The notes under the pieces were generated by a model. That model had not been told where the DNA came from and ran no database searches. It saw only the letters and a program-made list of their open reading frames with translations. The translations under genes and the position numbers were made by a program. This document shows, in pieces, positions 4,311 through 40,225 of a DNA stretch of 64,000 nucleotides. Every line of letters begins with the position of its first letter. Position 1 is the first letter of the stretch. The stretch is from positions 25,112,001 to 25,176,000 of the forward strand of contig OZ076409.1 in assembly GCA_964187785.1 (NCBI GenBank). The letters run 5' to 3'. Source of the DNA: Amphiscolops sp. MND2022. Its lineage: Eukaryota.

Positions 4311-4331
4311 CGGTTTTCTTCTCTTGTTCGT

Positions 4332-6572: not shown

Positions 6573-6573
6573 T

Positions 6574-16404: not shown

Positions 16405-17121
16405 CTATTGCGTCCTCATATTACTTGGATAAAATGTTACTATGAAAACCCGCAAATTTGTATAGAAATGTTTTAAAAATACTTGAAGAAGTAGTAACGC
16501 AGCATGAAAACTTCTCTGAACAGCTCTCAAACACTTAATAAATTTATCTTGCAACCTAAAAAAGCATGTAATGTAAGAACCATGACCCATGGTATCTCTT
16601 AAGTCACCTACAGATCTTGAATCTTTCTTTGCAATTTTTATTTTAGGCCCGGGTGCGCTTTCCCTGTTCTCCTGACTATTTGGGGACGAACTGGCCTCAG
16701 TGTCCCTGTGTCCCATAGAAGACATCGAGTTCGCAATATTCTGGATTTCTGGAATAACTCTTTCAGCTATAGCTGTTGTTATAGCCCTATTTATTTGGCT
16801 ATGCATTATTGACACCATAGATTCCATTTCTTGAGACAATCTAAGATTAAACTCACTTGAAAAGGCCTCAAAGGATTGCCTGACTTCATTTTGCCTCAAA
16901 GGTTCATTTTCATGTAAGTAATCTCTAAACTCATTTTCATGGTACACGTTTGTATCAGCGTCCCCGTGGGCCGACGACTGATCTATCGCTTCGGCTAGTT
17001 CTCTTTCAATGGGATTATTATTTTCATTTCCCAACATCACGTCTAGGTTATCATAGTCGGACAGCATGTCCATTTCTCTAGATCTCCTAGCTTTGGCCTT
17101 TTGACGTCTAGTAGAAGGCAT
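16405..17121 (-). CDS. 3'-LTR copy of the Gag N-terminus reading out into flanking DNA (238 aa chimeric ORF)
   Basis: The first 183 codons are identical to 30845-30297. The remainder is host flank. Expression is unknown. Confidence 0.4.
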   Translation of the reverse strand: MPSTRRQKAKARRSREMDMLSDYDNLDVMLGNENNNPIERELAEAIDQSSAHGDADTNVYHENEFRDYLHENEPLRQNEVRQSFEAFSSEFNLRLSQEMESMVSIMHSQINRAITTAIAERVIPEIQNIANSMSSMGHRDTEASSSPNSQENRESAPGPKIKIAKKDSRSVGDLRDTMGHGSYITCFFRLQDKFIKCLRAVQRSFHAALLLLQVFLKHFYTNLRVFIVTFYPSNMRTQ

Positions 17122-18100
17122 AAGAGATTATTGCAAGAGGCAAGAATTTAAATTAATATCTCGGGCTTGCAAAGTGAAAATGAACGGGTAGTTTTAATAA
17201 ACAATTCGCAACAGTAACGCAACAGTAACGTATCAAAGTATCATCAGGATAATTCTGTCCCCGGGACCACCAGTCCCGGTTATATATATTTGAATCTACA
17301 TGACACTCAATAAAATGATGATCATATTCTAAAAATAGCCATAAGGACTTTCTAAATATAGCCAAACGCTATAAATAGTAACTAGCATCATCGTGACGTT
17401 ATACACATCAAAGGGCCTTCCGACCGCTAGAGTAGGCGGGAAGCCTGTGAGTCCATAAGGACAAGCAATAATATAAAATAGAACACTGTACATGTTTTTC
17501 AACTCAACGCTTATTGCATGAATTATATGAATTGCACCCACAATACATATCTAATATCGTTCATGAGTCCCTTAGGGGCTAATAGTACATTTCATAAATA
17601 ATCAAAACACTAGTGATCATGTAGTCAGTACCAATAATTATACAGCGCTTTTAATTCAAAAGTGGACTCAGTGTCCAATGTACTAGAGCGGACTACCGCT
17701 TTGTTGACTGGCGGCATATAGCCATCCAGTCCTTTAATCTACTGATATAGTATAGCAGCAAATAAAGATAAATAATACTGCACTGTGATTGGCTGACGAG
17801 TTAATCGGACTCGCGGACCAAGGCGACAGGCGAGGAAACATTTGAACGCGTTTCCTTTACATGTACGCCTTGGTGTCCAATTAACTCACATACATATTAT
17901 TAGCGCCTGTACTATAATTTTACTTGTGATTACTTAGTATAAATCGTATAAAATAAAATATAAGATTTTACATGACTTTTAAGGCAACAAATATAGTTTT
18001 GCTTGTAAGACTTAATTCAGTGGGAGGGTGTTGGGCTGCGCCTTCTTGTAGTTGTGACTAATTGAATAGAGATTTCCATCACAGGCGGACGCCTGGGACA
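16572..18100 (-). repeat. 3' LTR
   Basis: Direct repeat of 30296-31824 with TG...CA ends, preceded by the PPT. Confidence 0.97.
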
Positions 18101-18851
18101 CTCCCCCTGGAATGAGCATAAAACATCCCACCTTCATTCCTTCTAGGAAGGCTAGCCTTCTTGCGTTGAATTGAAGGGCCGATTCTCCTTGGATGGTTGT
18201 TTTATGAAGGTAGTCGATGACTGCCTCGTCTTGAATCTGTTCGACTGATTTTCCGCAGACGAGGCAGTCTGTACATCCTGAGATGTAGGGGTTATCTGCG
18301 CCACTTGGTCCCCTGAAGTGTATTCCGTTGGCATGTTCTTGTTTGCTACTAGTAGTGGCTTCCGCTGCTATTCTCCAGTCGCCTGACGGATATTTGTCGA
18401 CGGCTGGGGGAGACATAGGCGTGTCGACCATAGGGATTAGCTGGCTACACAAATTGATTGGGTGGTCATTCCTTAGTCGCGGGTCTCTCGCAATCGGCCC
18501 TCTGCCCATTCCCAAGTCAAAATAGCCAGCATCGAACATAGGCCCAGGGACGTACGCTAGTCTGGGAGTCGCTGCGCGTGTCACTTCCTGCTTATTGGCA
18601 GAGGAAGGGATGGGAATTGCTTCTGATGTCGATGGAAGCTCCATCTGTCTCTCCACACATTGAGCCAGGAGGGCCATCTCATCGTCCTCAGACAGGCTTT
18701 CTAGGTCGTCAACAGATGCGCTGCTGACACATTCCATGTCGTCGTCCGATGATATGTATATTATTCCGTCTCCGGGCGCTGCCCCCTGAAAGTCCTCGGG
18801 GTAATATTGAGGAGACTCACAGTCGAAGTGACTTGACAAGAATTTATCCAT
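18012..18851 (-). CDS. Accessory sense ORF (about 279 aa from ATG MDKFLSS...), unknown function, overlapping the PPT and 3' LTR
   Basis: Open frame in GC-richer sequence with an acidic N-terminus and a CTDCLVC motif. It ends 89 nt inside the LTR. Confidence 0.75.
   Translation of the reverse strand: MDKFLSSHFDCESPQYYPEDFQGAAPGDGIIYISSDDDMECVSSASVDDLESLSEDDEMALLAQCVERQMELPSTSEAIPIPSSANKQEVTRAATPRLAYVPGPMFDAGYFDLGMGRGPIARDPRLRNDHPINLCSQLIPMVDTPMSPPAVDKYPSGDWRIAAEATTSSKQEHANGIHFRGPSGADNPYISGCTDCLVCGKSVEQIQDEAVIDYLHKTTIQGESALQFNARRLAFLEGMKVGCFMLIPGGVSQASACDGNLYSISHNYKKAQPNTLPLN
18101..18108 (-). promoter_or_regulatory. Polypurine tract (AGGGGGAG)
   Basis: Purine run immediately before the TG of the 3' LTR. 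Confidence 0.85.
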
Positions 18852-20134
18852 GATCAGTTTTTTAGCTATCTTGGACAATTGACTGAAAGGTTTTAAATCT
18901 TGAGTTTTGAGAAGCTGCTGATTTTCAAAAGTGAAACTGAAACAATGGCGGTTTCCCCTTCTGTCGACTTGCGGGAGTTTTCGTTTCAGTTTCCCGGGGT
19001 TTCTCCCTTCCTTGCTGACTAAATTTTCAATAACAAAATTCCTTCTTTCTAGAGTCTATTAACTAGCCGCTCAGTCTTCTTTGAAAATGCCGACCGAGGC
19101 TTTGTTGACTTACATTAACTCTATCAACACTTCCATATTAAGAGCGTCACTTTGAGTGTTTATTAACACTCATCTAGCACTTAAGGGTTTCAAGAGGATG
19201 AAGATATGGCAGACGGCTACGCCGTCTATCAGCAGTTTTGATCAACCAATAGGATTGCAGCATAACCCTCTCTGAATAAAAATGGCTCCCCAAGGCCGTA
19301 GATCCATATAAGGAATAATATAAATGACCTTGAAAATGAATAAAATCATGGTAAAATCATGAAATAATTTGTAAAATAACAAAGTTTCGAAATAAATGAA
19401 TGAATGTAGATATTGCTGGCAGACTCCATCCACATAATAATACGAATTGTAAATAACTAAATTTGACACCAAATTGTACAGCCACGAACTCCAATTTTGA
19501 CATCTTGTCACATTGCCAATTCACCTTTTAATTCTTTACTTTCAAATTCCTTCGAATTACTCTTCTTGTATTATCGTCCAGTATTTAACCATCTTTAGTC
19601 TTTAGTCTTTGAGTAGTATTTTCTTTGTATTTGTTTGAAGTTTCCATTTGTAATCTCTCTCCTTTACGTCTTTTGTGGATTTCTTGGGTCGTCCCAGGAC
19701 CATCGACACTGAGTCCCTTTCGGCAATTCCTGCCATATTCACTATTCTCGCCTTCTTCCGAAGAAGAATTTGCTCCCCCCAAGCGGCAACTATTGCACAG
19801 ACATTAAACAGATTCACTGACGCTTCCGCTGACAATTCCATCTGTCTCCAAATTCTAAGACAGCCAGTCAACTTGCCATCAGCAGTTTTGCACACAGGAC
19901 ACACTTCTACCAGAATCAGTCAGGTGAGTAGCAATTTAGGATTTTCGCTTCTAATCTTGATAATGAATTAATCTGAGGCTTGATCAGGGCTCTCGTTTCA
20001 TTCACGTACTTCCTGTCCCATAACTCAAGCATTCACTCGAGTTCAAAATATCTACTCCCGGAAGATTTTTAAACGCGGTAATGGACTCTTTTTCAGGAAG
20101 TTATCCGCCTGAGTTTATCTCTTTCCATTTAGAC

Positions 20135-23100
20135 ATGTCGTCAGAAGAGCAAAGTGAAGCTGTCCCTGCTACTACCACAGAACCGCAAATCGAAGAAGAG
20201 GTCTCGCAAAGCCATGAAAAGGCAACAGCTAGTCAGGCCATCTCAGGTCACGGGGACGTTGAGTCCGCACACATTGAGCTGCCAGGCGATAATCCAGCTA
20301 CGACCGTCCCAACGCCCAGTCCATCCACTGACGAAAGTATCTCTGCATATATCGAACGCCAGCTGCAAACTCTCGGTTGCCAGGGCAGTGGACTCGGCAT
20401 TTCCTTCCTGCCTCCTACTACATCTGCCATCGTAAACAAGTCGCTCCCAACTGCTGCTGAGAAGGTCTCTGAGTCGGACCCTATTCTACAGGTCACGGGT
20501 GAGACCAGCAATAAAGGGTCTGCTGAAGAATATGCCGATCCGATGACTGACGTCCACAGCGAGGCGGGTATTTCCGCTACCAAGGTGGATTATTTTCAAA
20601 CTGATACCAGCGACGCCGAAGAATTGCAGGACAGTTCAGGAGCAGAAACTCTTAAAGAATCCCCTTTCCTAATCGCCATGGAAAATTTGAGCGCCACCGG
20701 GTCAGAAGTTCCTAAAGAGGCTGGACTGACCTCCTCTGCAGGGTTGCCAGATGTCACGTCCCCAAAACTCCTTAGTCCCACACGGCCTTTGTCTGCATCT
20801 GCGCGTACTCTCATCAATCAGCATTTCACGGAGACTAATCCGAGTATCCTTCCAGTGGGCCATGCGACAGTAGCCTTCAACCAGGGGCAGGTGCACTCTA
20901 TTTTGCGTGCTGTGTCCACTGAGACTCTCACTTCTTGTTTTCATCAAATGAAGAACATCTTAGAGGAGGCAATTCGTGTGGGTCGTTCCCAAAGTACCCA
21001 TCAGGGTCCCGCCAAACAACGCATCAAGTGCTTCCGAAAGAAGTCCGATAGCCCTGAGTTAGAAGGTCAGGATAGTGACATTGGTACCGAGGGGTACACC
21101 AGTGGAGCCCTCAGTTCAGAAGATGAGTTTGTCATCAACTCCCAGAGAACCGGCAAGGAATTGAGTATCGTGCCTCCCCCAAGTCCTCCTGGCCAAGATT
21201 CTCCCTGCACTACTGATCCCACTATTAGCCACCAAGTCCCCAGTCCAGGATTCTGTTCCACGGACTATGAGCCGTTGGCTACCCTGACTGCTGATCAAGC
21301 TTCCGCCTCCAGTCCACCACGCAAGCGTCGTCGGGTTCCAGGACGAAGCGGCAAAATAATGAAGGAGGCATATTTCAAAGGAATTCAATGGACTCGGACC
21401 TTTGTCACTGGGCCGCTCGATCCTGAGCACAATAAACATAAGTTTTATTGTCAGATTTGTAAGGCCAATGTGTCAATTTTCTCAAAAGGCGCCCGAGAGA
21501 TTACCCGACATTTCCAGTGTGAGTCCCACTTTCGTAAGGATCAGCGCTGGAGATATGAGAATTTGAAGAAAAAGGACAGTGTCACTGGGCGAATCGTCCA
21601 TGAGGTCAGGGGAAAGAAAGGTCAAATCCTTACTCCCTTAGAACTAGAGAGGGAGAAACCCTTCTTCATGCAGGCCCCTTTAGTTGAGATGGGATGCAGT
21701 TATCCGTTCTACGAGGACCATATGGCTGGTTTGGGTTCCATTGCTGGGCAAGAGGAAATCAGACTGTGTGTACAGATCTCATTGGTCGCCCTCTTTGCTC
21801 CTCGCTGCGGAGATCTGCACGTCCTCGAGTCACTGTGGTCACAAATTTGAACTGTGACCAACCACCAGAGTCTGTTCTCCCCTTATAATTGGGGCTCCAC
21901 AACATTGACAGTAAGTATCAACTATTTTCAACCTCGAGGTCTTTCCAGACTATTATGGACGGGGTATATTTTCATCCATGCTAATTTGTTTCGGACGATC
22001 TTCCATCACATCTTCCTCTGTGGCATCTCTGACATCGCGTATCAGGTCAATGCCACAGGCCAGTACTCCTTGGAATTCGAGACGCAAGGTACTTATAGCT
22101 TCGTGTCGATCCGTTTCTGGAAAGGCGAGTCCCTCAATGTTGTCCGGCTGCTGCGCTATCGAACTGCCTCAGAGCCTGCTGCGAGCTTCTTGCTAGCCCT
22201 CTCTCGACTCTTGTCTGCAATATCTGCACAGCCACAAATTGTGAGTGTGTCTGGGTGTCCAGCAGAGCTGATCCCGCTTCTTGAGCGTTCCTGTTTCTTC
22301 CAGAAGGGGATTGAATATCCCTTCAGATTTGATGCTCTGTCCTTGCCGAGCATGATGCATGAACGTTGGGGCAGCGTGTTTGGATCCATCAGTTTCTTCT
22401 CCCAGTTGAAGTTTCTGATCACCTTCTTGGATGGCTGCAGTGGACAACCTTGGGCTGCCTTAATGCCGGAATTTGTCAGGGTATGGTCAATGTCTCACCG
22501 CCTGTAGGTCCAGTTGTAGGTTGATTCTAATTTTCATGTTGTTTGTAGGCTATGACAACTTGCCATTTGGATATTGCTGCAGTGCCAACAGGCAGAATTA
22601 GGCATCCACAAGTAGAAATTTGTCATAGAGGGTTCACAGGTGTTATATGTACCCTCCAGGACAATTGAGCATTCTGTATTTCAGAAGAGCTTCGAGAGTC
22701 AATTCGCACAACGAAGGGACAGTGGCTTCTATACCTTCCGCGAGTTCCACACCTTCATCAGAAAGTTGGCAGCACGGGCACTACTTCCTAGACATGTGCC
22801 AGAGATTTTAGACTGGAAAGCCCTAGACGACATGCAAGGACAGAACTGGCGACAACTGTCCAACCGAGATTTCCTGACTCGCTTAAAGCTGAAAGAGAAT
22901 CTTGATGGGGCTTGTCTCGCTCGTGTCAAGAAGATTCATAGTGAAAAACAGCTGACACCTGAGGAGACAAAAATTGCAGTTGAAGCCATCCGGGACGATT
23001 TCGCTACCAAAGCTCGCAATTATCTCGTCTACCTTCTGAAAGTCTTCTTGTCGGATATCAGTCTGAATGCAGGTATTGTCAGAGGTTTGGGTTGTTTCGA

Positions 23101-23830
23101 CCCAATGGCCCTCTTGTGTCTTCCTCTTGATCAAGCCACCTATTGCTTTTCAGCATTGTATCGATCCTTCAGTCTGCGAGGATGGTTGGAAAATTCCCCA
23201 GCGGCTGATGTCCGCGATGAGTACATTGACTTTTTAGAGTACTTCCGCCAGTTGAATTCCGGGGCCAAAGATACCCCTGAGGTCTTTACTGACATGGTAG
23301 CCACCCTGATAGAAATGCCTGGGCTGAAGATGCGTAAACATTTGTTCCACATCTTCCAATTGAGTTGTTTGTGCCTTACAACTAAGTTGCCAGAGCTCCC
23401 AGCTGTCAAATTCCCCGGAGTTGATTGTAGTGAACCCCGAAGTCGGCTGTTCGAAGTCATCATGCCCGCACAGTCATACCTCGCTAATGTTGCTAGTGCA
23501 GTGTCAGTGTGTACTACAGAAGCTTCTTTGGGTACTTTCAAAGATCTGGAGTTTCGGTTTTGTAGCGGGAATGTCTCAGGGGACCCCTGGTCTCATGTAG
23601 ATAGTTTCAACAGGGCCAACATTCACAAAACTTTGATTGCTGTCTACAAGGCTTTGGGCAGCAGTGTCCCACCTGACGCTGAGTGCGCTTCAAATTCTTC
23701 ATCCAAAGAAGGGAGGAAGCAACGCAAACAGTCTCCCAATAAGGGCAAGAAAGTTTGTTTCAAGGTCGCTAGCGGATCTGAGGCCACTGAGTCTGGTGAT
23801 GTAAACGCTCCCGGTACCTCTAAATCCTAA
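20135..23830 (+). CDS. Antisense multi-exon accessory gene (about 1156 aa; exons about 20135-21910, 21995-22480, 22549-22611, 22685-23830), C2H2/BED-like zinc finger; this copy has an in-frame TGA
   Basis: Three long ORFs joined by short phase-0 introns (GTAAGT, GTATGG and GTAGAA donors; CTAAT branch motifs in the first two). Candidate 5' UTR intron 19924-20132, AATAAA at about 24009. TGA at 21848-21850, and the first acceptor reads CGG. Confidence 0.75.
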
Positions 23831-24067: not shown

Positions 24068-27000
24068 CTAGTATCTGTATTCATCAGTAAAGTTGGGGGT
24101 TGGGTTAGGTCGAAGATTGTATTTCCCTCCTCTAGGGCTCGAATTTTCATTTGAATTTCCTCGTTCCGATATTCCGGGCACGGTAATATCTGCGCCTGTG
24201 TTTGAAACGTTTTCCGTATCTTTTAAATCATTAGTGACGTCATTTTCATTCTCAGTCCCCTTTGGCGTTTCATTCGGCGGGGACGGTTCGTCACTGCTAT
24301 TGTTCTCTCTCGGGGATATTTCGTTCTCGGTAACGTCATATTCTGTCGTGCGCTCGTTGTAACTTTCATTGCTTGCGCGTTCGTTCTCGGTGATGTAATT
24401 GTCCGCATTACTGCACTCGGCGTCCGTCGGCCGGCGTGTGGCCACGTCGGTCCAATTTTCCTTTCTCGGTTCAAATAAGTCGTACTCAAAATCTACTTCC
24501 CATGAGATAGTGTACAAGTCGTCTTGCGGTATTACTATCTCATTATCAGGTTGTAGTTTTTCGCCATCATATTTGTCCTCTAAGGGGGCGTTCGGTACGA
24601 ATTTCTTTAGTCTAATGCGATGAAGTATTTGGGTTTTATTTGTATTTAGACGACGGACAATATAATTGTCGTTGGACAGTACTTTTTGAATGACGAATGG
24701 TCCAATCCACCTGTATTCCTTGAATGGAATTTTTAACCCCTGACTGTCCGCTTTAGGTTGTAGAACAAAACAATAATCCTTTTCTTTAAGCGGGGCAGCT
24801 TTTGCCTTTCGGTCGTAATAGTCCTTATATTTCAAATAAGACTGCATTATGTTCTTTTTTGTTTGATCTATGAGGATTTGTGTCCTCTGCTGTACTTCCT
24901 CCGCAAATTCTGTAGTTGGCAGAAAATTTTTATTGGGGTTATTTCCCAATTTGTGGTCTAGGACGTTATAGGGAATCCGGCCGTGGAAGACTTTACTCGG
25001 TTCACATCCAATACTAGAGTGGTATGTGGTATTGTAGTTGAGTACTGCTAATGGTAAATATTTATGCCATTGGCGTCGATATTCCCCTGAGGCCATTTTC
25101 AAATTTGTTTTGAGTGAGGCATGGGTCCTTTCGAGTTTGCCAATTGTTTGCGGGTGCTTTGTAGTAGCACATTTGAGTGTTATACCTAAAATTTGAGTTA
25201 TCTCAGCTATGATGGTCGATGTAAATGCGGACCCTTTGTCTGTGATGAGAGTTGTTGGTAAATATGAATGTTTCGTCATGATATCAATTATCACCTTGGC
25301 TACATTCGTGGCTGTTGCCTCAATTAGCGGGTAGGCGAATAAGTATCTTGAGAATACATCTATAGCCGTCATCACCGTCTGGTATCCGCCACTAGTCGGT
25401 AAGTTTGGTAATAAGTCTATCTGCATGGCATCTTCTGGACCAAGGTCCCATTCGGGCAAGTTTAACAATTCTGGTGTAATTGTATTATTTGGGACTCTTT
25501 TGTCTCTAGCGCACGTTTCGCAGCCTTCTACCCATTTTTTAACGTATTTTGCTATGCCAGGGTAGTAGTATTTTTGGCGGATCTCTTGCAGCATTTTAGA
25601 GATGCCTGGATGTCGATGTGCCGTGCCATGTATTGCTTGCAGTAGTTCTTTCAACAGGTGCTTTGGCAGTAAGATTTGGTGGTATTTGATTTGTCCCGTT
25701 TCGTCGTAATACTGTCGGGTCACTATTTCGTCCTTGAGGACTATACGGTCTAAGTTATTTAAATAATGTTTATACCGAATGTCCTGCTGAAGGATTTCTT
25801 CAGAGTATTCTTCATTTTGAATTTTTGCTTTTAAATGAAGCAAAATCGGATCTTTGGGTTGTTCTAGTAGTATTTGGTTGGTTCTGCGTAGTTTCTGAGT
25901 GAAATTGGTAATTTCATCTACTACATTTTCAGATATGGTATCGATTTGGATGACGGTCTCATCGACCTTGAGTCCTGCTTTTGATTGTTTTTTCCTTTCC
26001 CAAATTTGTTCTTCTGTTTCATTGTCTTCTTCTGTAAAGAACACTTGTTCTTCTTCAGACACGCCGGCTGATTGGACATTAACATCAATAGGTTGGGTTT
26101 CAACGTCCGCTCGGATTTTTAGGACTAACTTTTCAGTGGGGTCCATTTCCATGCGGGACAGGTAGTCCGCCGCTGTGTTGTTTTTGCCTGGAATGTGCGC
26201 TATAGTGAAATTGAACTGAATAACAAAGTCACACGCGTTCCATAATGGCGGCGGTATTATTTTAGTCTGGAAAAACCTTGTGACTGATTTGTTGTCTGTG
26301 AGGATAATCACCGGCTTAGGCGTGCCCCAGAATATATGTCCAAATTCTTTGAAGGCGTAATAGATGGCTAAAAATTCCTTCGCATAAATTGACATTTTAA
26401 GCTGTGAAGGAGTAAAAGTTTTTGAACCATATGCAATAGGCGCATAGGATTTCTTGACTGAGGTAAATTTCTGATTTGGATCATCTTCAGTAAGTATAGC
26501 ATATCCGGCTGCTGTGAAGCTAGCATCTGTCATCAGGACTAGCTGTCGATTTGGCAAGGGCTGCCTCAGGGCTAGCTGGGTGCATCTGTCCAAATCTCTA
26601 TTGATCTCGTTGAATTGTTCAATTAATTCCGTTGTGACTAAGACCTTTTCGTCCTTCTTTAATAGTTGAAAGAAAGGGACTAATTTTTCTGATAACCTCG
26701 GTATGTAGTTTCTATAATAATTAAGGAATCCGAGGTAACGTTGTAAGGCTTTTTTGGATTTTGGGAATTTCGTTTTTTCTAGGAATTGTATGACTCGTTC
26801 CTTCTGGGGCTTGACACCCTCAGGGGTGATTGTCCTCCCTAAGAAATCAATCTCAGTTGCTCCGAAGTGGCATTTATGCATCGTTAATTTCAATCCAGCC
26901 TCTCGGATGCATTCGAAAGTTGCTCTGAGATTTTTAATGAGATGCTCAGCGTCGTTGGCCGCGATGCCAATATCATCCACGTATTGGGCACATTGATCGA

Positions 27001-29155
27001 CTTTGATGACACGGTCCAAATATTCTCTCATAAAACTGGAGAATGCCGATAAGGCTCTACTGAGACCTTGGGCCAATCTTCGATATGCAAACGTTCGGCT
27101 GGCAAATTTGAAGGCCAACATCTCTATAGACCGTTGGTCCGCCATTTGAAGGCAATGGTACGCTTGCGAACAGTCAAGCTTACAGAAAAGTTTCCTTCCG
27201 GCCATATGTTGTGCAGCGTCCGTTAAGGTGCTGACTGGATGGTTGTTGTTGATATAGTCGTCAGAAATGAGATTGTTGATCTTCCGGAGGTCTACCAGTA
27301 GTCGCAGTTTCCCATTAGGCTTCTTTTGTGCAAAGATAGGGCTAGCGTACTTTGAGAATGGTAATGTTGTTATAATACCATATTTGTGTAGTGACGCTAA
27401 TTCGACCAATATGTCCTCTTTTAAATTGACCGGAGTTGGTAAGCTCTGGCTGTAGGCAGGAGAGTCGTCCTTCGGGGTCAATTTGACCGTGAACTCCTCA
27501 TTCATACCAATGTCAAACCTATGACGGGCAAATATGTCGTGAAATTCGACTAATAGCGCTTCTATCTGTTTGATTTCATGCTGTTGTAGCATTGAGTCCT
27601 TCCAGTCAAAGTTACTGAGGAATTTTTGTCGAGATTCTTCATTGTCTTGTGGATTTAGTTTTTCTGCTTCTTGCAGGTTTCGTAATTCTCTAAGAATTCT
27701 CTTTTGTATTGGAGTATGGGACTCTTCGTCCCCTGGGTTTTCGGGTGTTGGAAACCAGTATTGTTCGTGTTGGTCATTGTTCCTGTTGGCTTTGAGAAGG
27801 CTGCTGATATAATAAATAGCATCTTCTTCATTTTCATTTAGTAGGTGCCAAGTGGACACTGGGTCTATTGGCCTAAAATGTTTCATTTGCTCTGGAGTCA
27901 TCACTGAGAAATTCGCTATGTGCATCCCTTTTTTGAGTTTAAAGGGCTGGTCTGTGAAGTTGTTGACATGGATCCTCGTAGTCCCTTCGTCCAGTGTGAC
28001 TATGGCGGCACAAAATGTCATATCATTTTCTTCGTTTAGAAGGTCACTGGGTTGTAAGATTCCAGTGACAGCGTTTTCTGCATAAATTTGAGATTGGATA
28101 GGGATGATTGTACGTCCATTTGGCGGAATCGTTATATCCTCGGGGTTGAGGATAGGTTCCATTACATTGGAGTACTTATGGTCAGCTGTTTTCAATTGCA
28201 TCGAGAAGAAGGAAAAGTTAAGTATGCCTTGGCGCATATCTAGGACTGTGTGGTTTCTTTGTAAGAACATAAGTCCAATTATGGGGCTGGATAATTTTTC
28301 CATCACTATGAAGATTTCGTGGAACTCTATGTCCCCTACTTCGAACTTCAGTTCTACTGTACTCTTCGGAGTTTCCAGGTCTCCATTTGCGACCATAATT
28401 TGGAATGACGGGGCAGGACCCTCTTTCACTATTGATTGGGGTGCAAGTAGCCGTATTTTCCTAAGGTCAGCTTCTGGTATCGCGCTGGAGTGGGCCCCAG
28501 TGTCTATGAGACCATCTAATGTTAGTTCTCCAAAGTCCATTGGGAAATATAGCATCCGCCTTTTGATTTTGAGGCCAAGGTTGGTAGAGAGGGGAACGTA
28601 TGACGGTTCTCCTTGTTTTTCCACTAGGATGTGCAAGAAGGCTGTTTCGTCTAAAAGGCTGTCGGGGCCTTGAAAGTCTTCTTGCTCTTGAGTTTCCTCT
28701 ATTTCTTCTAAGACTGCTTCGGAATTTGGCTGCCAAAGTTCAATGAGGGCCCTGGATAGTTTGTTGTCCACTATCGGGGGATCGTCCTCGTCGTCCGTTG
28801 GTGGATATTCGTCTTGTCTAAACTGGAGTTTTTGTCTGTCGTAGAGTTCGTCGTCCCAATAAGGGTCTTTGCCGTAATCAGGATCGGGGTATTGAGGGTG
28901 ATAATCTTCGATCAAGGGTAAGGGACGGAATTGAGTCTCGAAGTCTTTAGTATAGTCGATTTCGTAAAATCGGTCTGGGCGATCATTATGTACTATTTTA
29001 TATGTTCGGATATATGCTTGTTCCATCTGTTGCTGCCAGACAACAGTGGGAATTCCTTTTGTATCCTTGATTGTTTGGCTGTATTTGATTATTGGAGGAT
29101 CTGAAATGACATATTGTCGAACCGACATATAGTCATGTATTTGGAGTCGTGGCAA
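24068..29155 (-). CDS. pol: Pol polyprotein: protease, dUTPase-like domain, reverse transcriptase, RNase H, integrase
   Basis: Uninterrupted 1695-codon frame with LIDTGA, QYVDD (26972-26983), MTDAS/KEFLAI/LTDN, integrase H..H..CETC, QIDL/ITDKG/LERT, and a WIGPF module. Confidence 0.98.
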   Translation of the reverse strand: MPRLQIHDYMSVRQYVISDPPIIKYSQTIKDTKGIPTVVWQQQMEQAYIRTYKIVHNDRPDRFYEIDYTKDFETQFRPLPLIEDYHPQYPDPDYGKDPYWDDELYDRQKLQFRQDEYPPTDDEDDPPIVDNKLSRALIELWQPNSEAVLEEIEETQEQEDFQGPDSLLDETAFLHILVEKQGEPSYVPLSTNLGLKIKRRMLYFPMDFGELTLDGLIDTGAHSSAIPEADLRKIRLLAPQSIVKEGPAPSFQIMVANGDLETPKSTVELKFEVGDIEFHEIFIVMEKLSSPIIGLMFLQRNHTVLDMRQGILNFSFFSMQLKTADHKYSNVMEPILNPEDITIPPNGRTIIPIQSQIYAENAVTGILQPSDLLNEENDMTFCAAIVTLDEGTTRIHVNNFTDQPFKLKKGMHIANFSVMTPEQMKHFRPIDPVSTWHLLNENEEDAIYYISSLLKANRNNDQHEQYWFPTPENPGDEESHTPIQKRILRELRNLQEAEKLNPQDNEESRQKFLSNFDWKDSMLQQHEIKQIEALLVEFHDIFARHRFDIGMNEEFTVKLTPKDDSPAYSQSLPTPVNLKEDILVELASLHKYGIITTLPFSKYASPIFAQKKPNGKLRLLVDLRKINNLISDDYINNNHPVSTLTDAAQHMAGRKLFCKLDCSQAYHCLQMADQRSIEMLAFKFASRTFAYRRLAQGLSRALSAFSSFMREYLDRVIKVDQCAQYVDDIGIAANDAEHLIKNLRATFECIREAGLKLTMHKCHFGATEIDFLGRTITPEGVKPQKERVIQFLEKTKFPKSKKALQRYLGFLNYYRNYIPRLSEKLVPFFQLLKKDEKVLVTTELIEQFNEINRDLDRCTQLALRQPLPNRQLVLMTDASFTAAGYAILTEDDPNQKFTSVKKSYAPIAYGSKTFTPSQLKMSIYAKEFLAIYYAFKEFGHIFWGTPKPVIILTDNKSVTRFFQTKIIPPPLWNACDFVIQFNFTIAHIPGKNNTAADYLSRMEMDPTEKLVLKIRADVETQPIDVNVQSAGVSEEEQVFFTEEDNETEEQIWERKKQSKAGLKVDETVIQIDTISENVVDEITNFTQKLRRTNQILLEQPKDPILLHLKAKIQNEEYSEEILQQDIRYKHYLNNLDRIVLKDEIVTRQYYDETGQIKYHQILLPKHLLKELLQAIHGTAHRHPGISKMLQEIRQKYYYPGIAKYVKKWVEGCETCARDKRVPNNTITPELLNLPEWDLGPEDAMQIDLLPNLPTSGGYQTVMTAIDVFSRYLFAYPLIEATATNVAKVIIDIMTKHSYLPTTLITDKGSAFTSTIIAEITQILGITLKCATTKHPQTIGKLERTHASLKTNLKMASGEYRRQWHKYLPLAVLNYNTTYHSSIGCEPSKVFHGRIPYNVLDHKLGNNPNKNFLPTTEFAEEVQQRTQILIDQTKKNIMQSYLKYKDYYDRKAKAAPLKEKDYCFVLQPKADSQGLKIPFKEYRWIGPFVIQKVLSNDNYIVRRLNTNKTQILHRIRLKKFVPNAPLEDKYDGEKLQPDNEIVIPQDDLYTISWEVDFEYDLFEPRKENWTDVATRRPTDAECSNADNYITENERASNESYNERTTEYDVTENEISPRENNSSDEPSPPNETPKGTENENDVTNDLKDTENVSNTGADITVPGISERGNSNENSSPRGGKYNLRPNPTPNFTDEYRY

Positions 29156-29157
29156 AA

Positions 29158-30845
29158 TTAGTTTTTTGAATCAGATTTTTTAGTATTGGGTTGGCTTGAA
29201 GTAGCCGTTTCTGGGTCATTTGCTTTTTTAGGCTTTCCTTCGGAGTCTATAGCATTTCGGTCATTTTGTTCTGTCTGCATCCTTTTGGGTCGCAGGTGGG
29301 CGCCGGCGCCTTGCCAGCACCTTTCGGTTGGGTGGTTCTTTTTGCCACATGTGTCACACGGTGGGTAAGTTGGACGCTGAGGTTTTTTACCGTCTTTGTC
29401 CTCCGTTTCCTTTTTCTTCTTGAGTTTCGGGCAGTTTTTGTAATAGTGACCCGTCGCCTTGCAGTATGAGCATTGGGCGTCTTTATTTGTGTTGATGCCA
29501 TTGGACAGTAAATTGTTATGGCTCGTGGACGCCGAGGCCATAGTGGCCATTGGCAGATCATCTGACTCTTCTAATGCATTGAGTTCCAGTTCTCTTTCAA
29601 GATGAGCAACTATTTCTTCATACGTCCCGTTCTCCAAACGGGCCATGTTGACAGATCGTTTCAGTTTTGGGGGTAATTTCGCGTATAACAAGCTGTCAAT
29701 CATGCTTTTAGCGTTTTCCCCAAATGCTTTTTCTGCACCTTGGTTCAGTTCTTCCAAGAAGTCTGGTAGTTTCATTGTACTTGGATCGAAGTTCAATCGG
29801 TGCCATTTATGCTTTGCCGTTGCTTGTGATTCCGGTTTGACATATTTCCTCCGGAATATGACCAGTACGTCCTCGAGAGTTTGACGGTTGATTGAGTTTA
29901 TGTTCCTGAATGTCTGTAATGCTCCCTTTCGTAGCAAAGAATGAAAGTGATTAATTTTCATTTGTTCTGTCATTGTGGGCTGCATTTTGATCATCGTATG
30001 GAACAAGTCCTCAAAGAGCTCAAATTTTTCACTTTTCCCATCAAATGTCATCGGGGTTGTTTGTACGGGTCTGATGGTCATAGATTGCGGTTTGTTTTGC
30101 AAATTGACCAATACGTCGGCTAGTCTATTAAACGGGTTCTGAGGAGGTTCAGGAGCCTCTGGGGCCGGGGCTGGCAGAGTCGTGTCCAGAGAGATATTGT
30201 GTGTGGATTGTTGTCTCTCTAGGTTCGGGATTGAGTGGATTCGTCCGGTCAGAAATTCGGAATTTGCGGTTGGGTGTCGGTAGCTCCTGTCACCATGTAA
30301 GAACCATGACCCATGGTATCTCTTAAGTCACCTACAGATCTTGAATCTTTCTTTGCAATTTTTATTTTAGGCCCGGGTGCGCTTTCCCTGTTCTCCTGAC
30401 TATTTGGGGACGAACTGGCCTCAGTGTCCCTGTGTCCCATAGAAGACATCGAGTTCGCAATATTCTGGATTTCTGGAATAACTCTTTCAGCTATAGCTGT
30501 TGTTATAGCCCTATTTATTTGGCTATGCATTATTGACACCATAGATTCCATTTCTTGAGACAATCTAAGATTAAACTCACTTGAAAAGGCCTCAAAGGAT
30601 TGCCTGACTTCATTTTGCCTCAAAGGTTCATTTTCATGTAAGTAATCTCTAAACTCATTTTCATGGTACACGTTTGTATCAGCGTCCCCGTGGGCCGACG
30701 ACTGATCTATCGCTTCGGCTAGTTCTCTTTCAATGGGATTATTATTTTCATTTCCCAACATCACGTCTAGGTTATCATAGTCGGACAGCATGTCCATTTC
30801 TCTAGATCTCCTAGCTTTGGCCTTTTGACGTCTAGTAGAAGGCAT
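29158..30845 (-). CDS. gag: Gag (about 560 aa), interrupted by one frameshift near 30258
   Basis: Capsid-like region (TFDGKSEKFELFE) and two CCHC knuckles (CSYCKATGHYYKNC, CDTCGKKNHPTERC). The ORFs 30249-30845 and 29158-30111 join if one base is restored (QIP-EFLTGRIH...). Confidence 0.85.
29161..29167 (-). promoter_or_regulatory. -1 programmed ribosomal frameshift slippery site A_AAA_AAC
   Basis: Heptamer in the gag frame directly before the TAA. The -1 frame is pol, and a downstream hairpin is present. Confidence 0.8.
30278..30295 (-). promoter_or_regulatory. Primer-binding site (TGGTGACAGGAG..., tRNA-Leu-like)
   Basis: TGG immediately after the LTR's terminal CA. tRNA identity is inferred. 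Confidence 0.8.
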
Positions 30846-31824
30846 AAGAGATTATTGCAAGAGGCAAGAATTTAAATTAATATCTCGGGCTTGCAAAGTG
30901 AAAATGAACGGGTAGTTTTAATAAACAATTCGCAACAGTAACGCAACAGTAACGTATCAAAGTATCATCAGTATAATTCTGTCCCCGGGACCACCAGTCC
31001 CGGTTATATATATTTGAATCTACATGACACTCAATAAAATGATGATCATATTCTAAAAATAGCCATAAGGACTTTCTAAATATAGCCAAACGCTATAAAT
31101 AGTAACTAGCATCATCGTGACGTTATACACATCAAAGGGCCTTCCGACCGCTAGAGTAGGCGGGAAGCCTGTGAGTCCATAAGGACAAGCAATAATATAA
31201 AATAGAACACTGTACATGTTTTTCAACTCAACGCTTATCGCATGAATTATATGAATTGCACCCACAATACATATCTAATATCGTTCATGAGTCCCTTAGG
31301 GGCTAATAGTACATTTCATAAATAATCAAAACACTAGTGATCATGTAGTCAGTACCAATAATTATACAGCGCTTTTAATTCAAAAGTGGACTCAGTGTCC
31401 AATGTACTAGAGCGGACTACCGCTTTGTTGACTGGCGGCATATAGCCATCCAGTCCTTTAATCTACTGATATAGTATAGCAGCAAATAAAGATAAATAAT
31501 ACTGCACTGTGATTGGCTGACGAGTTAATCGGACTCGCGGACCAAGGCGACAGGCGAGGAAACATTTGAACGCGTTTCCTTTACCTGTACGCCTTGGTGT
31601 CCAATTAACTCACATACATATTATTAGCGCCTGTACTATAATTTTACTTGTGATTACTTAGTATAAATCGTATAAAATAAAATATAAGATTTTACATGAC
31701 TTTTAAGGCAACAAATATAGTTTTGCTTGTAAGACTTAATTCAGTGGGAGGGTGTTGGGCTGCGCCTTCTTGTAGTTGTGACTAATTGAATAGAGATTTC
31801 CATCACAGGCGGACGCCTGGGACA
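30296..31824 (-). repeat. 5' LTR
   Basis: Direct repeat of 16572-18100. Confidence 0.97.
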
Positions 31825-32114
31825 TGTAAATCTTTAAGGCACTTGCAAATTGGGTTTAACTCAATAACTTCTTGTCTTTTTCTTGTCTCTAAGAAAAGAC
31901 ACAATATCGTATACCACGATTTTATTTCGAACAAATACAACAAATAACTTGAACCAGCTATGGACAAATCAATTTATTCACCATTCACCAATTCATTCCC
32001 TCTCATTGACTATAGCCCAACCCGTCACCAAAGGTTCTACAAATACAAAAAATCGGCAAGTTCAACCAGCTTTAAAGATTTTGACCGAACCAAGAAAGGA
32101 ATCAGAAGTATATT

Positions 32115-34185: not shown

Positions 34186-36562
34186 ATTACTCCATCTTGA
34201 CCTCGATTTCAAACACGGTTACATTTAAAATGTTCACATACAACCTATACTGATGTTATCAAACTGTAACTACTTTTCGCCTTAACATTAACTCGTTCGT
34301 CACAGCCATGCTCTGTAACGGCAAGCTGTTATCGGTCGCTTAACGCGTTAACAGAGGTGGAGGAACCTGCAGAAATGGGTGAATCGCTCGGTACAGGCGC
34401 CCATCGCCACAGATCCATTTTGCCTCCAGGGGTGAAATAAGTCCCGGGGCCGTCGGTGCTTCGACGAATACTGTCCAACCGGTCCTAGTCTTTGATTGCT
34501 AATAGTAACGGACATCTTTCTGACTCTAAAGATCACCGCTTAACTAGCACATAAAAACAATGCCAAGAATAAGGTAAATTTCCAGTTCCAGGGTGACAGG
34601 GGAATAAGATCTAAAATTGGGGAATAAGATCTAAACTATCGCTAGAGCTAGTAAATACGGCCAAAATCACTGAAAACACATGAAAACAGGCACGAACATG
34701 GCAGACCACACAGCTACAAGCTGGGGCGCAGGGGCTCCACGTACCAAACAAGGATATTTAAGCGAAAAAACTCAATTTTACGGTTTCCGCTACATAGGGT
34801 AGCATATTGCTGAAAATCGATAAAAACCGGGTATTAGCGCCAAAAAGGAGTCTTGCTATGCGTTTTCACAGTCTCTATGGGCTCTCAGGCCATCTCTTTC
34901 TCTGTATTCTCGCTCGGTCTGCCCTCGTCTTCGTTTTGCGTTGAAAATGGCGAAAACAGCGAAAAGAGCAATCACGTGCTCAGTGCCACGTGAATAGATA
35001 TCAATACCATGTTTTCACTAAAAATTGCTCAAGATCCTAGGCTACATTTTCGCCCGAAAAAATTCGACTTCATGGATTTCTTGCTAAGAAGATTTGAAAA
35101 AACGCAATTTTTGACTGTTTTTCATCTTCCATCCCCTATATATCAGACCTGAGACCGAATACAGAATCCATGGTTTCGTAAAAAGTGCAAGCATTTTATA
35201 GGCTACGATGTTAACAAGTTTTTATTCTTAGTTTTTTGGACAAAAACGGGATAAAAAAACGTCACAATTTTTTCTCTCTTCTAGCTCAAGTTTCTCAAAA
35301 GTGAAATTAGATACAGAAACTTTGAACTATTCTCCCTCAGAAAGTCAGACAAGGATGTGGGTTTTTCTACCATCAAAATTTCCGTGACCACGTATGACGC
35401 CTTCGTTATTCTGCCAAAACTACTTGAAGTTTTTTTCTTAAGTGCTTTATACTTAAGCTCCTATATCTCAGTACAGAGACCAAATACGGAGTCCATGGTT
35501 TCGTAAATCATACAAGGGTTTCGTAGGCTATATTTAAGCCTAAAGATGACGTCAACTTTTTGTCTCAATCTGGGTTTTTCGAACAAAAATGCGATAAAAA
35601 TGTGCGAATTTTTTTCAGTTTGTAGCAAATGTGTGATTTTTTTTCAGTTTGTAGCTCATAGACGCTCATATTTCTCGAAATTGAAAATGATACAGAATTC
35701 AATCACCCTCGACAACTATAGCAAGGATGCAGGCTATTTCTTTTACCATCAAAGTTTTCGTCATCAAGCATGACGCCCTTGTTTTTTGACAAAAAATACT
35801 TGGTACATATTTTTTGTGTTTTTCTTAGCTTTTTCATCAAAAATTCCTGATAAGAGACTAGATGAGTTCACATGGTTTTGGGACTTGGGATGTACACAAT
35901 TTGTAGCGCCTTCTGTAGACCATTGAACGTTTATGCTCGAAGCCAAGCGCGACATGCAGTCTTATTGAAAACATTTTTTTTGGAAATTGTTTCTTCAAAT
36001 TTTGGTTTTTGAGAGGTTTTCGGTTGAGCAAAACCATTTTTCTCAAAATTTCGCCAAAACACGTACGGCTTGTTTTTCGTGACTGTGCACTTTTTCGGAA
36101 ATAGTTTTCCTTTGGTAAAATGGTACTCCCTTCACTTTTAAAAAACAAAAATTTTTCGCTTTGAAAAAGCGTTTTGCGACTTGATTGTGTCTCTTTCCGG
36201 AAAAAATTCGAAAACTTTTCAAACTTTGTGTTTTTAACGTTTCCATTACAAAAGCGGTTTTCGAGTCTTTTACATATAGAGTCTTTCCCAATAGAGTCTT
36301 TTAGCATATTTATAACACTTTACACTCTTTGAACTTTGAACGGGGCGCCAAATTGGGCCGTTCCCGGTTTGTTTAGCTAGCAAAAGTACGGAAAACTGTT
36401 GGCTGAAGCTGGAAATCGAACCCCCGACAGAAATTTGACTTGGTCCCACTTCTTGATGTCAAGTTTCGAGGGGTAAGATATCGATATTCGAACTTTGATT
36501 AATATTGTCAGATTTGTTTACTTTGGGATTAGAGAATTTAATCTGTCTTCCTGGATAAAAAA

Positions 36563-38610
36563 GACAAGCCGAGAACGGCCCAAGTTGGCGCCATATCTAA
36601 GGCTCAACAATAGCAGAAGGTGTTCAAAATGTCAAAGTATTGGTGAATTGGGGGCCCTTTTATGAAAAAAATTGAAAGTCTCACAATGCCGAGAAAAACT
36701 GAAAGGAGGGACCCTTTGGGATTTTTCAACATCCATTCTGTCGGAAAATATCAAAAAATTGAAGGAGGAACCCTTTGGTGAAATTTTTGTTTTCGAAAAA
36801 AAAGACTCATAGAGTCAAAAATACTCTAAGGGAGTACCCTTTGCCCCCGTTGAGTTTCTCAGATGATGTACCCTAGTCGAGATAGCTTGAACTTTTTACA
36901 TGCTGCATGGAAACATGCAGGCTAATTTTTTATAAAACATGGAAAATTCCGGTACCGTGCATGGAAACATTTTGTAGGATTACAATGCAGCTTCTACTAT
37001 TTGAATTAAAACTGAAAACATTTCCACTTCTTCACCGCAGCGATCACTTTGTTTTCACGCGTAAGTTTCTCATGTAAGTGCCTTATGTAATCACCGTTAG
37101 CCAAATATGACGCTACTTTGAAACTTATAAGGTGACTGAAATTTGTTTGCATTGAAAGCGCGGTAAAATTGATTAAGGTCTCAGCTGCTTTCAAAATTAG
37201 AACGGCGTCTTTATGAAACTTGCAAAACGTCGCGGCGCAGAATTGCCGCCAAATTTAAGGTGCATTTTATAGGCAGCTTGATAAAGTTAAATCGAATCAA
37301 TGAAGATTTAATGCATGGACATTTCTTTGAGAATTTTATAAAATCATGGAAAATTAGCTTGGTAACCTACAAAAACATGTAAAAAGTTCAAGGAGTTCCA
37401 ACTAGGGTAAAAATACTACTTCGTAAGCTAAGTGAGAATGGTAAGATTGTAAGAATTGAAAGAAAAGTGGTCCAGTCAGAGTGAGATTTTAAGCTGAAAC
37501 AAGACGGGAACGTCTGAAGTCGGCGCTATACCTAAGGCTCAAAAAGCGCTAAAGACTTTTTTAAAAACTTGAACTTTTTGATTTTTTTCTCTCAAAAAAT
37601 GTCGCATAGTGCCGAAAAATGTAAAAGGGGGACCCTTTGGGCTTTATTAACATATATTCTGTTGCAAAATATCAAAAAACTCGAAAGGGGGACTCTTTTG
37701 AGACATTAAAAAATTTTCGAAAAAAGTCGCACAGTGCCGAAAAAAATTGAAATGGGGGACCCTTTAGCCTCTTCTGGTTTTGTAGGTTTCGTAAAAAAGG
37801 TTAAAAATGAAAGGGGGACCCTTTGCACTAAGTCTGCATTGGCCGGACTTGGCCTGAGTACTTTTATCAGTTTCTGTAAAAAGTGGTACATACGCGATGA
37901 GGTCTGTGGTCTGACGAAAAAAAGAACAAGACGGGAACGTCTAAAGTCGGCGCTATATCTAAGGCTCAAAAAGCTCAGAGTTTTCTAAATATGCCCAGGA
38001 TGTATTCATGAAAAGCTTTGAAAACACTTTCGAGACACCCAAAGTGTGCCTTTCATGCTCGATATGACCGGAAAATCACTTTTCCCGACTCGACTGGAAA
38101 CAAAAAAAATTTTGAAAAAAAATTTTTTGAAAAAATTTTTTTTGAATTTTTTTTTGAAAAAACTTCGAAAACGTCGCATAGTGCCAAAAAATGAAAAGGG
38201 GGGACCCTTTGGGATTCATTAACATACTTTTTGTTGCAAAATATCAGAAAATCCGAAGGGGGGACTCTTTTGAAAAATTAAAAATTTTCGAAAAAAAAAT
38301 TCGCACAGTGCCGAAAAAAAATTGAAAGGGGGGACCCTTTGGAGTCTTCCGGTTTTGTAGGTTACGTAAAAAAGGTAAAAAACGAAAGGGGGACCCTTTG
38401 CAGTAAGTTTGCATTCGTCGAACTTGGCCTGAGTGAACTTATCAGTTTCTGTAAAAAGTGGTACATACGCGATGAGCTCTGTGGTCTGACGAAAAAAAAA
38501 AGAAAAAAAACTAGCCACTGTAATAGTCGGGCTTTTTTTCCTTAAAGGAAAATGCGCCGACTAAAAACTAGCCACTGTAAGTGTCGAGCACTTTTTGTAA
38601 AAAGCGGCCT
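36563..38610 (-). mobile_element. Array of Helentron/DINE-1-like family A elements
   Basis: Reverse-complement 3' ends (ACAAG + hairpin + AGT(C/T)GGCGC) at about 36564, 37499 and 37926. 5' end GCGCCGACTAAAA at about 38554-38566. Confidence 0.7.
36871..37407. mobile_element. MITE with CCCTAGT termini and TA target duplication, inserted in a family A element
   Basis: TA|CCCTAGTCG...CAACTAGGG|TA, plus inner inverted repeat CTTGAACTTTTTACATG. Confidence 0.8.
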
Positions 38611-38825: not shown

Positions 38826-40225
38826 CAGGGCCCGGATTTATATGAGAAGTTCATAACGCATGTTTTTACGCATATTTGGCCTAAATTTATTTTTGCGCAT
38901 ATTTTCATGAACTTAACGCATATTTAGCCAAAATTGACAAGGAATTGGACTGCAGTGATAAAAGGCAGTTATCATTAAATGCAAAGAGACAGGATGCGCT
39001 TAAGTTTTCGGATGAAACTTCTAACAAATTCTTTGATCATATTACTGAAGCATTTACCTCAGCAGCTATTCCATTTCACAAACTTCAATGTCGAAAAGTA
39101 AAATCCCTGTTGGAGACATGGTCGGGCCAGGCAGCTCCAGACGAGTCTACACTTCGAAAGAATTATTTGCCGAAACAGTTCAATAAAGTTATATCAGCAA
39201 TTAAAGAGGCGGTTACTGGGAAAAATTACTACATTATGGTAGACGAAGCGACAGACCCCGCAGGTAGATTTTTGGTTGGTGTTTTAATTGGAGTTTTAGA
39301 CAACGAATTAAAGCCACCAATGCTTTTTAATCTTGCTGAGACTGAGAAAACGGATGCTGTAGCCATAAACCAAATAGTTAATTCGAGTCTTTGCTCGATT
39401 TTTGACGAGATGGACTATTCAAAATTTCGTTTATTTGTATCAGATGGTGCCAGTTACATGCTTAAAGCAGGCAAGCTGTTAAAAGGCTTATTCCCGAAAC
39501 TGCTACACATTACCTGTCTAGCCCACGGTTTAAATCGGCTTGACAGGGTTGCCCTTACCGCCTGTGCCTGTTATCACCAGATGGTCTTCGTGGCTAATTG
39601 CAGTGTTTTATTACGCCAAGTATTTTGCCGAATTTCAACAATTTCTGATTCACTTGGGAAGTGAAGAACCCAATAATTCAGAAATCACGAAAATTTTGGA
39701 CCTCATGGACAACGCGCTCATGCAAGAAATGGCATTTTTAGTTGCATCTTTCGATTTTTTACCAGAGGCCATTACGAAGTTACAGGGACGACTGTCGTTG
39801 TGTGATCAGTTTGTTATTTTGGAGAAAGTTATTGTCAACGTACAAGGCGACAACTATAAAGAGAAACTCGATGCTGTTTTAACCCGAAATCCTGATTTTA
39901 AAATTTTGCAAGATTTTGCAAAAATTCTGAGAGGAGAGAGAGTCAGTTCTGATGTGCCACCACTAGATGCTCCAATTTACCGATATGCACCCCTGGTTTC
40001 TGCCGATATAGAGAGAGTTTTCTCAGAAATGGGACAAATTCAAACTCCACAAAGAATGTCACTTACCATTGAAAACTTGAAACACCATTTATGTGTCTAT
40101 TGGTATAATACTGTGTATGAAAACCAATAAATTTTTACGCATATTTTTACGCATATTTTAGGATTTTTTACGCATGTTTTTACGCATATTTGGCATATTT
40201 TTTACGCATGAAAATCCGGGCCCTG
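38826..40225 (+). mobile_element. hAT DNA transposon, 1400 bp, internally deleted
   Basis: TIR CAGGGCCCGGATTT, exact 8-bp TSD ATGATGAC, and subterminal TTTTACGCAT repeats at both ends. Confidence 0.96.
38945..40130 (+). pseudogene. hAT transposase remnant
   Basis: MVDEATD, VSDGASYM, CLAH, TRWSSW, SADIERVFS. No N-terminus, and a frame change at about 39540. Confidence 0.92.

Follow-up and report, generated by a model that had tools for sequence, protein, structure and literature searches.

Element structure and classification

The window, by which we mean the whole 64-kb stretch of DNA that was analysed, contains a 15,253-bp LTR retrotransposon on the minus strand, at positions 31824-16572, with the following parts:

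31825-31829, minus strand: left copy of the 5-bp TSD
31824-30296, minus strand: 5' LTR, 1529 bp, TG...CA
30297-30845, minus strand: LTR-encoded gag codons 1 to 183, placed by LTR position and homologues
30284-30295, minus strand: PBS, 12 nt, tRNA-Leu-like, starting with TGG directly after the 5' LTR
30257-30260, minus strand: frame break in gag at about codon 196, the shifted frame stopping at 30249
30256-29158, minus strand: remainder of gag (linker, capsid-like region, CCHC knuckles), with the gag stop at 29158
29161-29167, minus strand: slippery heptamer A AAA AAC immediately ahead of the gag stop; a hairpin is predicted downstream of it
24068-29170, minus strand: pol, 1700 codons open (5.1 kb), with protease, dUTPase-like region, RT, RNase H and integrase
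18012-18851, minus strand: ORF3, 279 aa, running through the PPT and ending 29 codons inside the U3 of the 3' LTR
18101-18108, minus strand: PPT, an 8-nt purine tract directly before the 3' LTR
18100-16572, minus strand: 3' LTR, 1529 bp, TG...CA
16405-17121, minus strand: second copy of the gag start, in the 3' LTR, with 183 codons plus 55 into the flank (238 aa)
16567-16571, minus strand: right copy of the 5-bp TSD

The two LTRs are 99.8% identical, with no indels and three substitutions at LTR positions 240, 586 and 853, all of which lie upstream of the gag ORF in the LTR, an avoidance that is not significant (chance about 0.26). The TSD has the same sequence as the final five bases of the LTR, probably by chance. 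The PBS agrees at 10 of its 12 bases with two tRNA-Leu 3' ends tabulated in the PMC13524379 supplement, the comparison being with these tabulated ends, and no tRNA genes were found in the 64-kb window.

The element is a young Ty3/Gypsy (Metaviridae) LTR retrotransposon, a label which leans partly on RT motifs that we presume to be of this superfamily, because BEL/Pao elements have the same domain order and DUF1759 as well. The features found are paired LTRs with a TSD, a PBS and a PPT, a Gag with a capsid region and CCHC knuckles, and the pol order PR-RT-RNase H-IN (Pfam positions 218-305, 616-781, 847-971 and 1169-1340, respectively); the integrase lies after RNase H, and the Ty1/copia (Pseudoviridae) order, with integrase before RT, was not observed. 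The dUTPase-like region of pol scored 21.9 bits against a Pfam cut-off of 22, and at least 120 relatives of pol were found. The capsid/CCHC frame is open from stop to stop at 29158-30327, its capsid-like region matches DUF1759 above the Pfam cut-off, and its zinc knuckle, which gave only a weak Pfam match, matches those of retroviral NC, dArc1 and Ty3. The heptamer at 29161-29167 is likely a gag-pol -1 frameshift site. One pol relative, P0344 (1708 aa, from a cluster of 264), is called from an ATG mapping to 29128 on the minus strand, just past the gag stop, and a separate pol start might be used besides the -1 frameshift.

The gag frame starts inside the LTR and runs through the PBS

An initial annotation of this DNA had placed the beginning of gag inside the 5' LTR, and the coordinates agree with it throughout: the ATG at 30845 falls on LTR position 980, leaving 550 nt up to the LTR 3' end, and the LTR encodes 183 gag codons plus one base, after which the frame crosses the LTR end and the PBS, reading GSY up to the boundary and MVTGATD beyond it (Y-M-V-T-G). 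Read in the gag frame, the PBS is M184-V-T-G-A, the A of the ATG being the last base of the LTR. In this copy the ORF from 30845 stops at 30249 and encodes 198 aa. Because the non-coding middle part of the LTR (positions 90-979) has no stop-free stretch longer than 73 codons in the three sense frames, and because 188 long relatives of the 198-aa ORF were found, the LTR ORF is not a chance occurrence.

The same annotation had proposed a dual coding constraint on the LTR end and the PBS, and this is supported with one nuance: the PBS is indeed read in frame, but the motif does not by itself show selection on the MVTG residues. We considered the invariance of MVTG as proof of amino-acid selection and rejected it, since the conserved tRNA-binding 12-mer spells MVTG in the gag frame. 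The motif, being the nucleotide spelling of the PBS, thus shows that the frame passes through the PBS and not that its residues are selected.

The LTR boundary across the family

If the boundary is shared, 3' LTRs and solo LTRs of relatives should yield ORFs whose match covers residues 1-183 and gives way to unrelated DNA, codon 184 beginning with the last A of the LTR. Among 54 homologues with an unmatched tail, the match ended at residues 183 to 187 in 27. When 340 proteins were anchored on a conserved box, 202 could be anchored, of which 165 continue into MVTG and 37 do not. Three of the 37 are degenerate continuations (P0054, P0121 and P0156) and were set aside; in the remaining run-off ORFs residue 184 was I, M, T, N, K, S or R in 33 of 34, in comparison to a background of 41% in the same tails, and with the degenerate continuations kept in, 35 of 37 had a residue with an A-starting codon at this position. 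The run-off ORFs include relatives that are only 45% to 58% identical, and in two proteins, P0048 and P0053, residues 1-183 are joined in frame to different retroelement sequence. As read from the proteins of relatives, the LTR end is at codon 183 across the family.

The frame break near position 30258

The one missing base that had been suspected near 30258 is borne out by length: from its ATG to its stop, gag measures 1688 nt (562.67 codons), one base fewer than in relatives of 562 aa. The continuity of the frame in the family was checked on proteins, and the results showed that the frame is continuous in relatives: in 118 of the 120 matches listed (188 found) the LTR ORF and the capsid ORF are in one chain, mostly of 560 to 562 aa, and these relatives are 67% to 97% identical over the first part. 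This first count asked for long proteins only and was blind to copies broken at the site, for which reason it was repeated in two sets without a length filter. Fifty proteins in these sets have both the upstream box and MVTG, and 48 of them stay in the capsid frame beyond the motif, as judged by pattern for 45 and by eye for 3; the exceptions are P0283, which leaves the frame at residue 188, and P0337, which leaves it at about 198 with a different product. The 198-aa product of the window copy had no equal among the 340 fetched proteins, and no slippery heptamer was present between 30408 and 30039.

Two origins of the break had been offered, a copy-specific deletion and a second recoding site, and only the former survives. 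A programmed site that meters full-length Gag against the 198-aa product has as its sole point in favour that the rest of this young copy is intact (1700 codons of pol, ORF3 and indel-free LTRs), and it is refuted by the continuity in both the listed and the unfiltered relatives, by the uniqueness of the short product among the fetched proteins, and by the lack of a heptamer in the interval searched. Since the relatives are continuous, the protein comparisons lead us to regard the frame break at about codon 196 as a lesion private to the window copy. The missing base could instead be a sequencing or assembly error, the copy being intact in the organism. Single-base indels are the usual error of long reads and the element is otherwise young and clean; however, no indel separates the two 1529-bp LTRs and pol stays open over 5.1 kb, so that the local error rate looks low, and broken copies such as P0283 and P0337 are common in the family. 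We thus consider an error rather unlikely, though a real contender.

The arrangement across the clade

The profile search returned 2486 representatives, 150 of them listed, and distant Gags were found to keep MVTG within an otherwise unalignable linker. With P0001 as the reference of comparison and proteins less than 60% identical as the distant set, the residue before the motif was Y, H, N or D (an xAC codon) in 19 of 20 instances in comparison to a background of 17%, and the residue after the motif had a G-starting codon, corresponding to the twelfth PBS base, in 19 of 20 instances in comparison to a background of 25%. The LTR consensus end ACA, given in PMC3601003, predicts an xAC codon before the motif. 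Gags that are 31% to 59% identical keep the PBS peptide in frame, and seven distant Gags with their own N-terminus (31% to 55% identity) have 114 to 223 codons before MVTG and 4 to 8 K/R in the first 15 residues. Among capsid-bearing matches with at least 90 upstream residues, a motif of the MVTG type was present in 19 of 24; of the five without a motif upstream, three had it at the first residues or were degenerate and two looked frameshifted by eye. Conservation of the LTR ORF in related elements, which the initial annotation had named as one of two critical points, therefore holds family- and clade-wide, and a gag start deep in the LTR with a frame crossing the PBS is supported by these protein sequences as a trait of the family and the clade, the boundary evidence in families below about 45% identity being the motif alone, without run-off ORFs.

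In three relatives (P0126, P0166 and P0245), MVTG-like units occur in frame as tandem sets of two or three, which suggests in-frame duplication of the PBS together with the LTR end and fits moves of the PBS. As for the origin of the arrangement, we lean somewhat towards an LTR that grew over the gag start as priming moved to a downstream in-frame PBS, in preference to a gag that grew into an old U5.

Several further observations were made on the relatives. P0128 has H-M-A-T at the place of the motif, perhaps reflecting another tRNA primer in the same frame. Between P0009-P0035 and P0001-P0008, some relatives are 86% to 90% identical in the LTR-coded part and 94% to 95% in the capsid part, a difference that may reflect LTR exchange between subfamilies or a faster rate of change in the LTR part. 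Searches with the Gag alignment gave no loci in metagenome contigs and none in viral contigs, and the pol alignment gave 17 short loci, two with very divergent gag (about 20% to 22% identity) and none with paired LTRs. Locus L009 (1-700) is a sister-clade element from another assembly, with an RT about 65% identical, a charged helical ORF upstream of the capsid and a PBS-like word at 501, without a paired LTR.

The LTR-coded part of Gag, a probable domain

Two parts of the LTR-coded region stand out:

30798-30845, minus strand: basic patch at the N-terminus, residues 1-16, with a mean identity of 0.90 among 12 relatives
30438-30608, minus strand: long conserved helix at residues 80-136, a parallel homotrimer in the model

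Conservation tracks predicted structure in this region, with mean identities among diverse relatives of 0.90 for residues 1-16, 0.68 for 17-50, 0.39 for 51-79 and 0.67 for 80-136. In each of the 11 relatives compared, the substitutions over codons 1-183 were more conservative than a neutral nucleotide model predicts (z 2.1 to 3.8), comparisons that share ancestry and are made without a true neutral control; in the same test the variable C-terminal tail reached z values of up to 2.6. The chance of staying stop-free over 183 codons under neutrality was 0.03 to 0.16, and 0.001 for the most distant relative (39% identical). By these proxies, protein-level selection on the LTR-coded domain upstream of the PBS is supported.

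Pfam gave only helix matches below the cut-off for the LTR ORF, and an Atlas search with it gave no usable match. The AlphaFold2 model of Gag was poor (mean pLDDT 40.5), with one long helix at residues 61-138 at low confidence. When three copies of residues 15-140 were modelled together, the score was 0.50 in comparison to 0.00 for the best of three controls, with the contacts in residues 80-136 in parallel register, agreement between runs of at least 32% of contacts, and pLDDT of at least 55. In calibration 21 of 30 solved pairs attained the score mark, and none of the 23 single chains did; for eukaryotes the figures were 17 of 29 pairs and 0 of 30 single chains, with 7 of 16 in animals and 1 of 7 for those without an older solved relative. 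Because these calibration complexes are of two copies while the Gag model is of three, an oligomer number chosen by the analyst, and because the predictor may remember coiled coils, the score supports self-association without proving it or settling the oligomer number. The LTR-coded helix is probably a coiled coil that oligomerises Gag, and we infer that the LTR-coded part is a true N-terminal Gag domain, whose basic patch would serve nucleic acid binding or membrane or nuclear targeting.

The evidence above has to be weighed against two other readings of the LTR-coded frame. Gag might really start at M184, formed by the last A of the LTR and the PBS, or lower, with the LTR frame left open by accident or for nucleotide-level reasons; M184 is invariant, several database ORFs begin there, and RNA or promoter signals could preserve some of the LTR sequence. 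However, the invariance of M184 follows from the LTR end and the PBS themselves, the 183 codons are open and in frame between subfamilies about 30% apart, at a neutral chance of 0.03 to 0.05 per comparison, as well as in the 39%-identical relative, and the basic N-terminus recurs in Gags only 31% to 55% identical, which makes such a start quite improbable. The 1529-bp repeat could also be a shorter LTR joined to a duplicated piece of gag, as is suggested by the 2437-bp tandem duplication of the other element of the window, whose repeat at 4136-9007 contains an LTR end, a PBS and a gag start. This is refuted here by a repeat that runs from TG to CA, adjoins the PPT and the PBS and is flanked by the TSD, and by the run-off ORFs of relatives 45% to 98% identical, which end at the same codon. 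With these readings set aside, we hold it very probable from the sequence comparisons that the element is a Ty3/Gypsy retrotransposon of a clade with the PBS inside gag, in which the LTR supplies, in its last 550 nt, the codons of Gag residues 1-183, and that the frame break is private to this copy.

Proposed expression and priming

The candidate signals in the LTR are as follows:

31004-31012, minus strand: TATA-like box, the only one in the LTR (LTR position 813)
30917-30922, minus strand: weak candidate poly(A) signal ATTAAA (LTR position 903), followed by a more U-rich stretch than the other two candidates
30519 and 30366, minus strand: other candidate poly(A) signals AATAAA, both inside the ORF

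From the TATA-like box the TSS is predicted at about 30985-30980, which would make the 5' UTR about 135 nt long. A three-codon upstream ORF is present at 30968 in this predicted 5' UTR, and a 7-pair GC-rich hairpin at 30985-31003 directly follows the TATA box, around the predicted TSS; the hairpin was noted through a bacterial promoter scan that is otherwise irrelevant to this host. Because the frame is conserved into the capsid, the mRNA should include gag codons 1-183 upstream of the PBS, which would place them in R-U5, and minus-strand strong-stop DNA would be about 690 nt long. A ribosome making Gag would cross the tRNA-binding site, and priming would require untranslated RNA; since the ribosome passes the PBS, one RNA should not be translated and primed at once. 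The Kozak context is weak at M1 and strong (the best) at M17. The use of M1 is argued from the conserved basic patch, and M17 and M184 may serve as starts of shorter forms, with M184 as a minor second start. The window copy would give only the 198-aa N-terminal fragment and could move only in trans, its cis signals and pol being intact.

ORF3 and the U3 end of the LTR

HIV nef and the foamy-virus bel genes are known examples of 3' genes that run into U3. In the element described here, the PPT in the ORF3 frame encodes part of P-G-G-V. ORF3 has 80 relatives down to 29% identity, several of them in clusters of 65 to 163 members, and for five of them the source sequences are, by eye, of the same size as those of the gag matches. 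The C-terminal box is reached by 47 of the 80, and 46 of these 47 spell V/L/M-S at the LTR start, while the mean identity over the first 12 U3 codons is 0.81. With ORF3 passing through the PPT into U3 and gag starting in the LTR, both LTR ends code, and judging from these relatives they do so across a clade.

ORF3 is acidic, with an acidic hydrophobic motif near the N-terminus, a CxxC and a two-helix core (pLDDT 78 to 90 at residues 201-240). It has no Pfam or Atlas match, and its model (mean pLDDT 52.5) has no match in PDB at E 0.001, results that speak neither for nor against a membrane fusion glycoprotein such as the third ORF encodes in env-bearing errantiviruses and Tor-like elements. The U3-coded tail is modelled with pLDDT below 50, and because of this low confidence folding lends no support to a structural role of the tail. 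From the acidic hydrophobic motif and the CxxC we tentatively suggest a nuclear regulator or an anti-silencing protein, an assignment that is more doubtful than not.

Comparison with known systems

The closest likeness is to Ty1 of Saccharomyces cerevisiae, in which the PBS is inside GAG (PMC4974528), at nt 94-104, and the 5' UTR is 53 nt (PMC3592414); in both elements the gag frame starts before the PBS and crosses it. The initial annotation had described LTR-internal starts of the Ty1 kind as short, which proved right, with about 13 codons before the Ty1 PBS in comparison to 183 here, a whole domain. Ty1 differs in belonging to another superfamily and in its initiator Met primer, in comparison to the tRNA-Leu-like one here. 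The element shares LTR ends, PBS, PPT, a gag with CCHC and PR-RT-RH-IN with Ty3, Diaspora, Ogre and the second element of the window, but unlike the element at 31824-16572 these conventional elements have gag after the PBS. In the excerpts available, the PBS of Ty3 adjoins the 5' UTR (PMC4974528), gag of Diaspora begins 873 bp past the LTR (PMC1142308), and a separate ORF precedes gag in Ogre and Retrosat2 (PMC1142308, PMC3485330), that of Ogre having 550 codons and lying between LTR and gag (PMC1142308).

At the other LTR end, pol overlaps the LTR in V-clade1 gypsy elements of Tetraodontiformes, as described in the accessible sections of PMC11117352; like ORF3, their 3' ORF crosses the PPT into the 3' LTR, and those sections mention no 5' capture of gag. 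The bdelloid Vesta, Juno and TelKA and the planarian Burro have a dUTPase between PR and RT and extra ORFs after pol (PMC5408684, PMC6431247, in the parts available); set beside the window element by description, they resemble it in the placement of the dUTPase-like region and in the post-pol ORF, and no LTR-internal gag start appears in those parts. Nor does one appear in the available parts of PMC4402516 (Tor), PMC3315495 (Cer1) and PMC3286476 (Culex). A literature search by exact phrases found no Gag domain of such size inside an LTR, and Repbase, GyDB, subscription papers or supplements may hold one.

Implications

The LTR, usually a non-coding control region, here encodes the first third of Gag and the tail of ORF3. 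The trait known from Ty1, where it covers a dozen codons, is thus extended to a third of Gag, with a mirror case at the PPT. The usual assumption that LTRs do not code, and that gag should be looked for between them, does not hold here, and pipelines built on it would truncate such Gags and miss the N-terminal domain. The PBS peptide signature (an xAC residue, M-V-T-G and a residue with a G-starting codon) makes LTR boundaries readable from protein databases alone. Open to test are the handover of a translated PBS to tRNA priming, the making and transfer of a strong-stop DNA of about 690 nt, and whether a Gag fragment from solo LTRs restrains the family.

A broader and speculative proposal, which we rate as unlikely in its full form, is that in a whole gypsy-like clade both priming sites have been shifted into genes, leaving the LTR as a compact cassette of ORF3 tail, promoter/terminator and Gag oligomerisation domain, with solo and 3' LTRs making truncated Gag and fusions. 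If this were true, each solo or 3' LTR would come with its own promoter and start codon, and with 183 stop-free codons encoding a self-associating Gag helix; the truncated Gag may poison particle assembly and act as a built-in copy-number brake, for which Ty1 p22 is an analogue; and in-frame fusions to flanking sequence, as in P0048 and P0053, would be readily available.

Other features of the window

Three antisense ORFs of 608, 218 and 404 codons lie within the element, in the stretch from pol to ORF3 (20024-23830, plus strand); none has a Pfam match above the cut-off, the first has one C2H2-like finger at residues 468-482, and together they could be a spliced antisense family gene or a nested insertion. 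The second gypsy-type element (1080-9007, minus strand) is laid out conventionally, its PBS at about 4345 preceding the gag ATG; its RT carries an internal deletion, and its LTR end, PBS and gag start are within the 2437-bp tandem duplication (4136-9007), which shows 6 differences. Plus-strand fragments of a hAT transposase, with DUF659 and the dimerisation domain, are spread over two frames at 38885-40130. Positions 51200-57400, 11000-12900 and 36300-38600 contain a 3.4-3.5 kb duplication with diverged tandem repeats, each about 185 bp long, as well as a family of dispersed repeats in both orientations.
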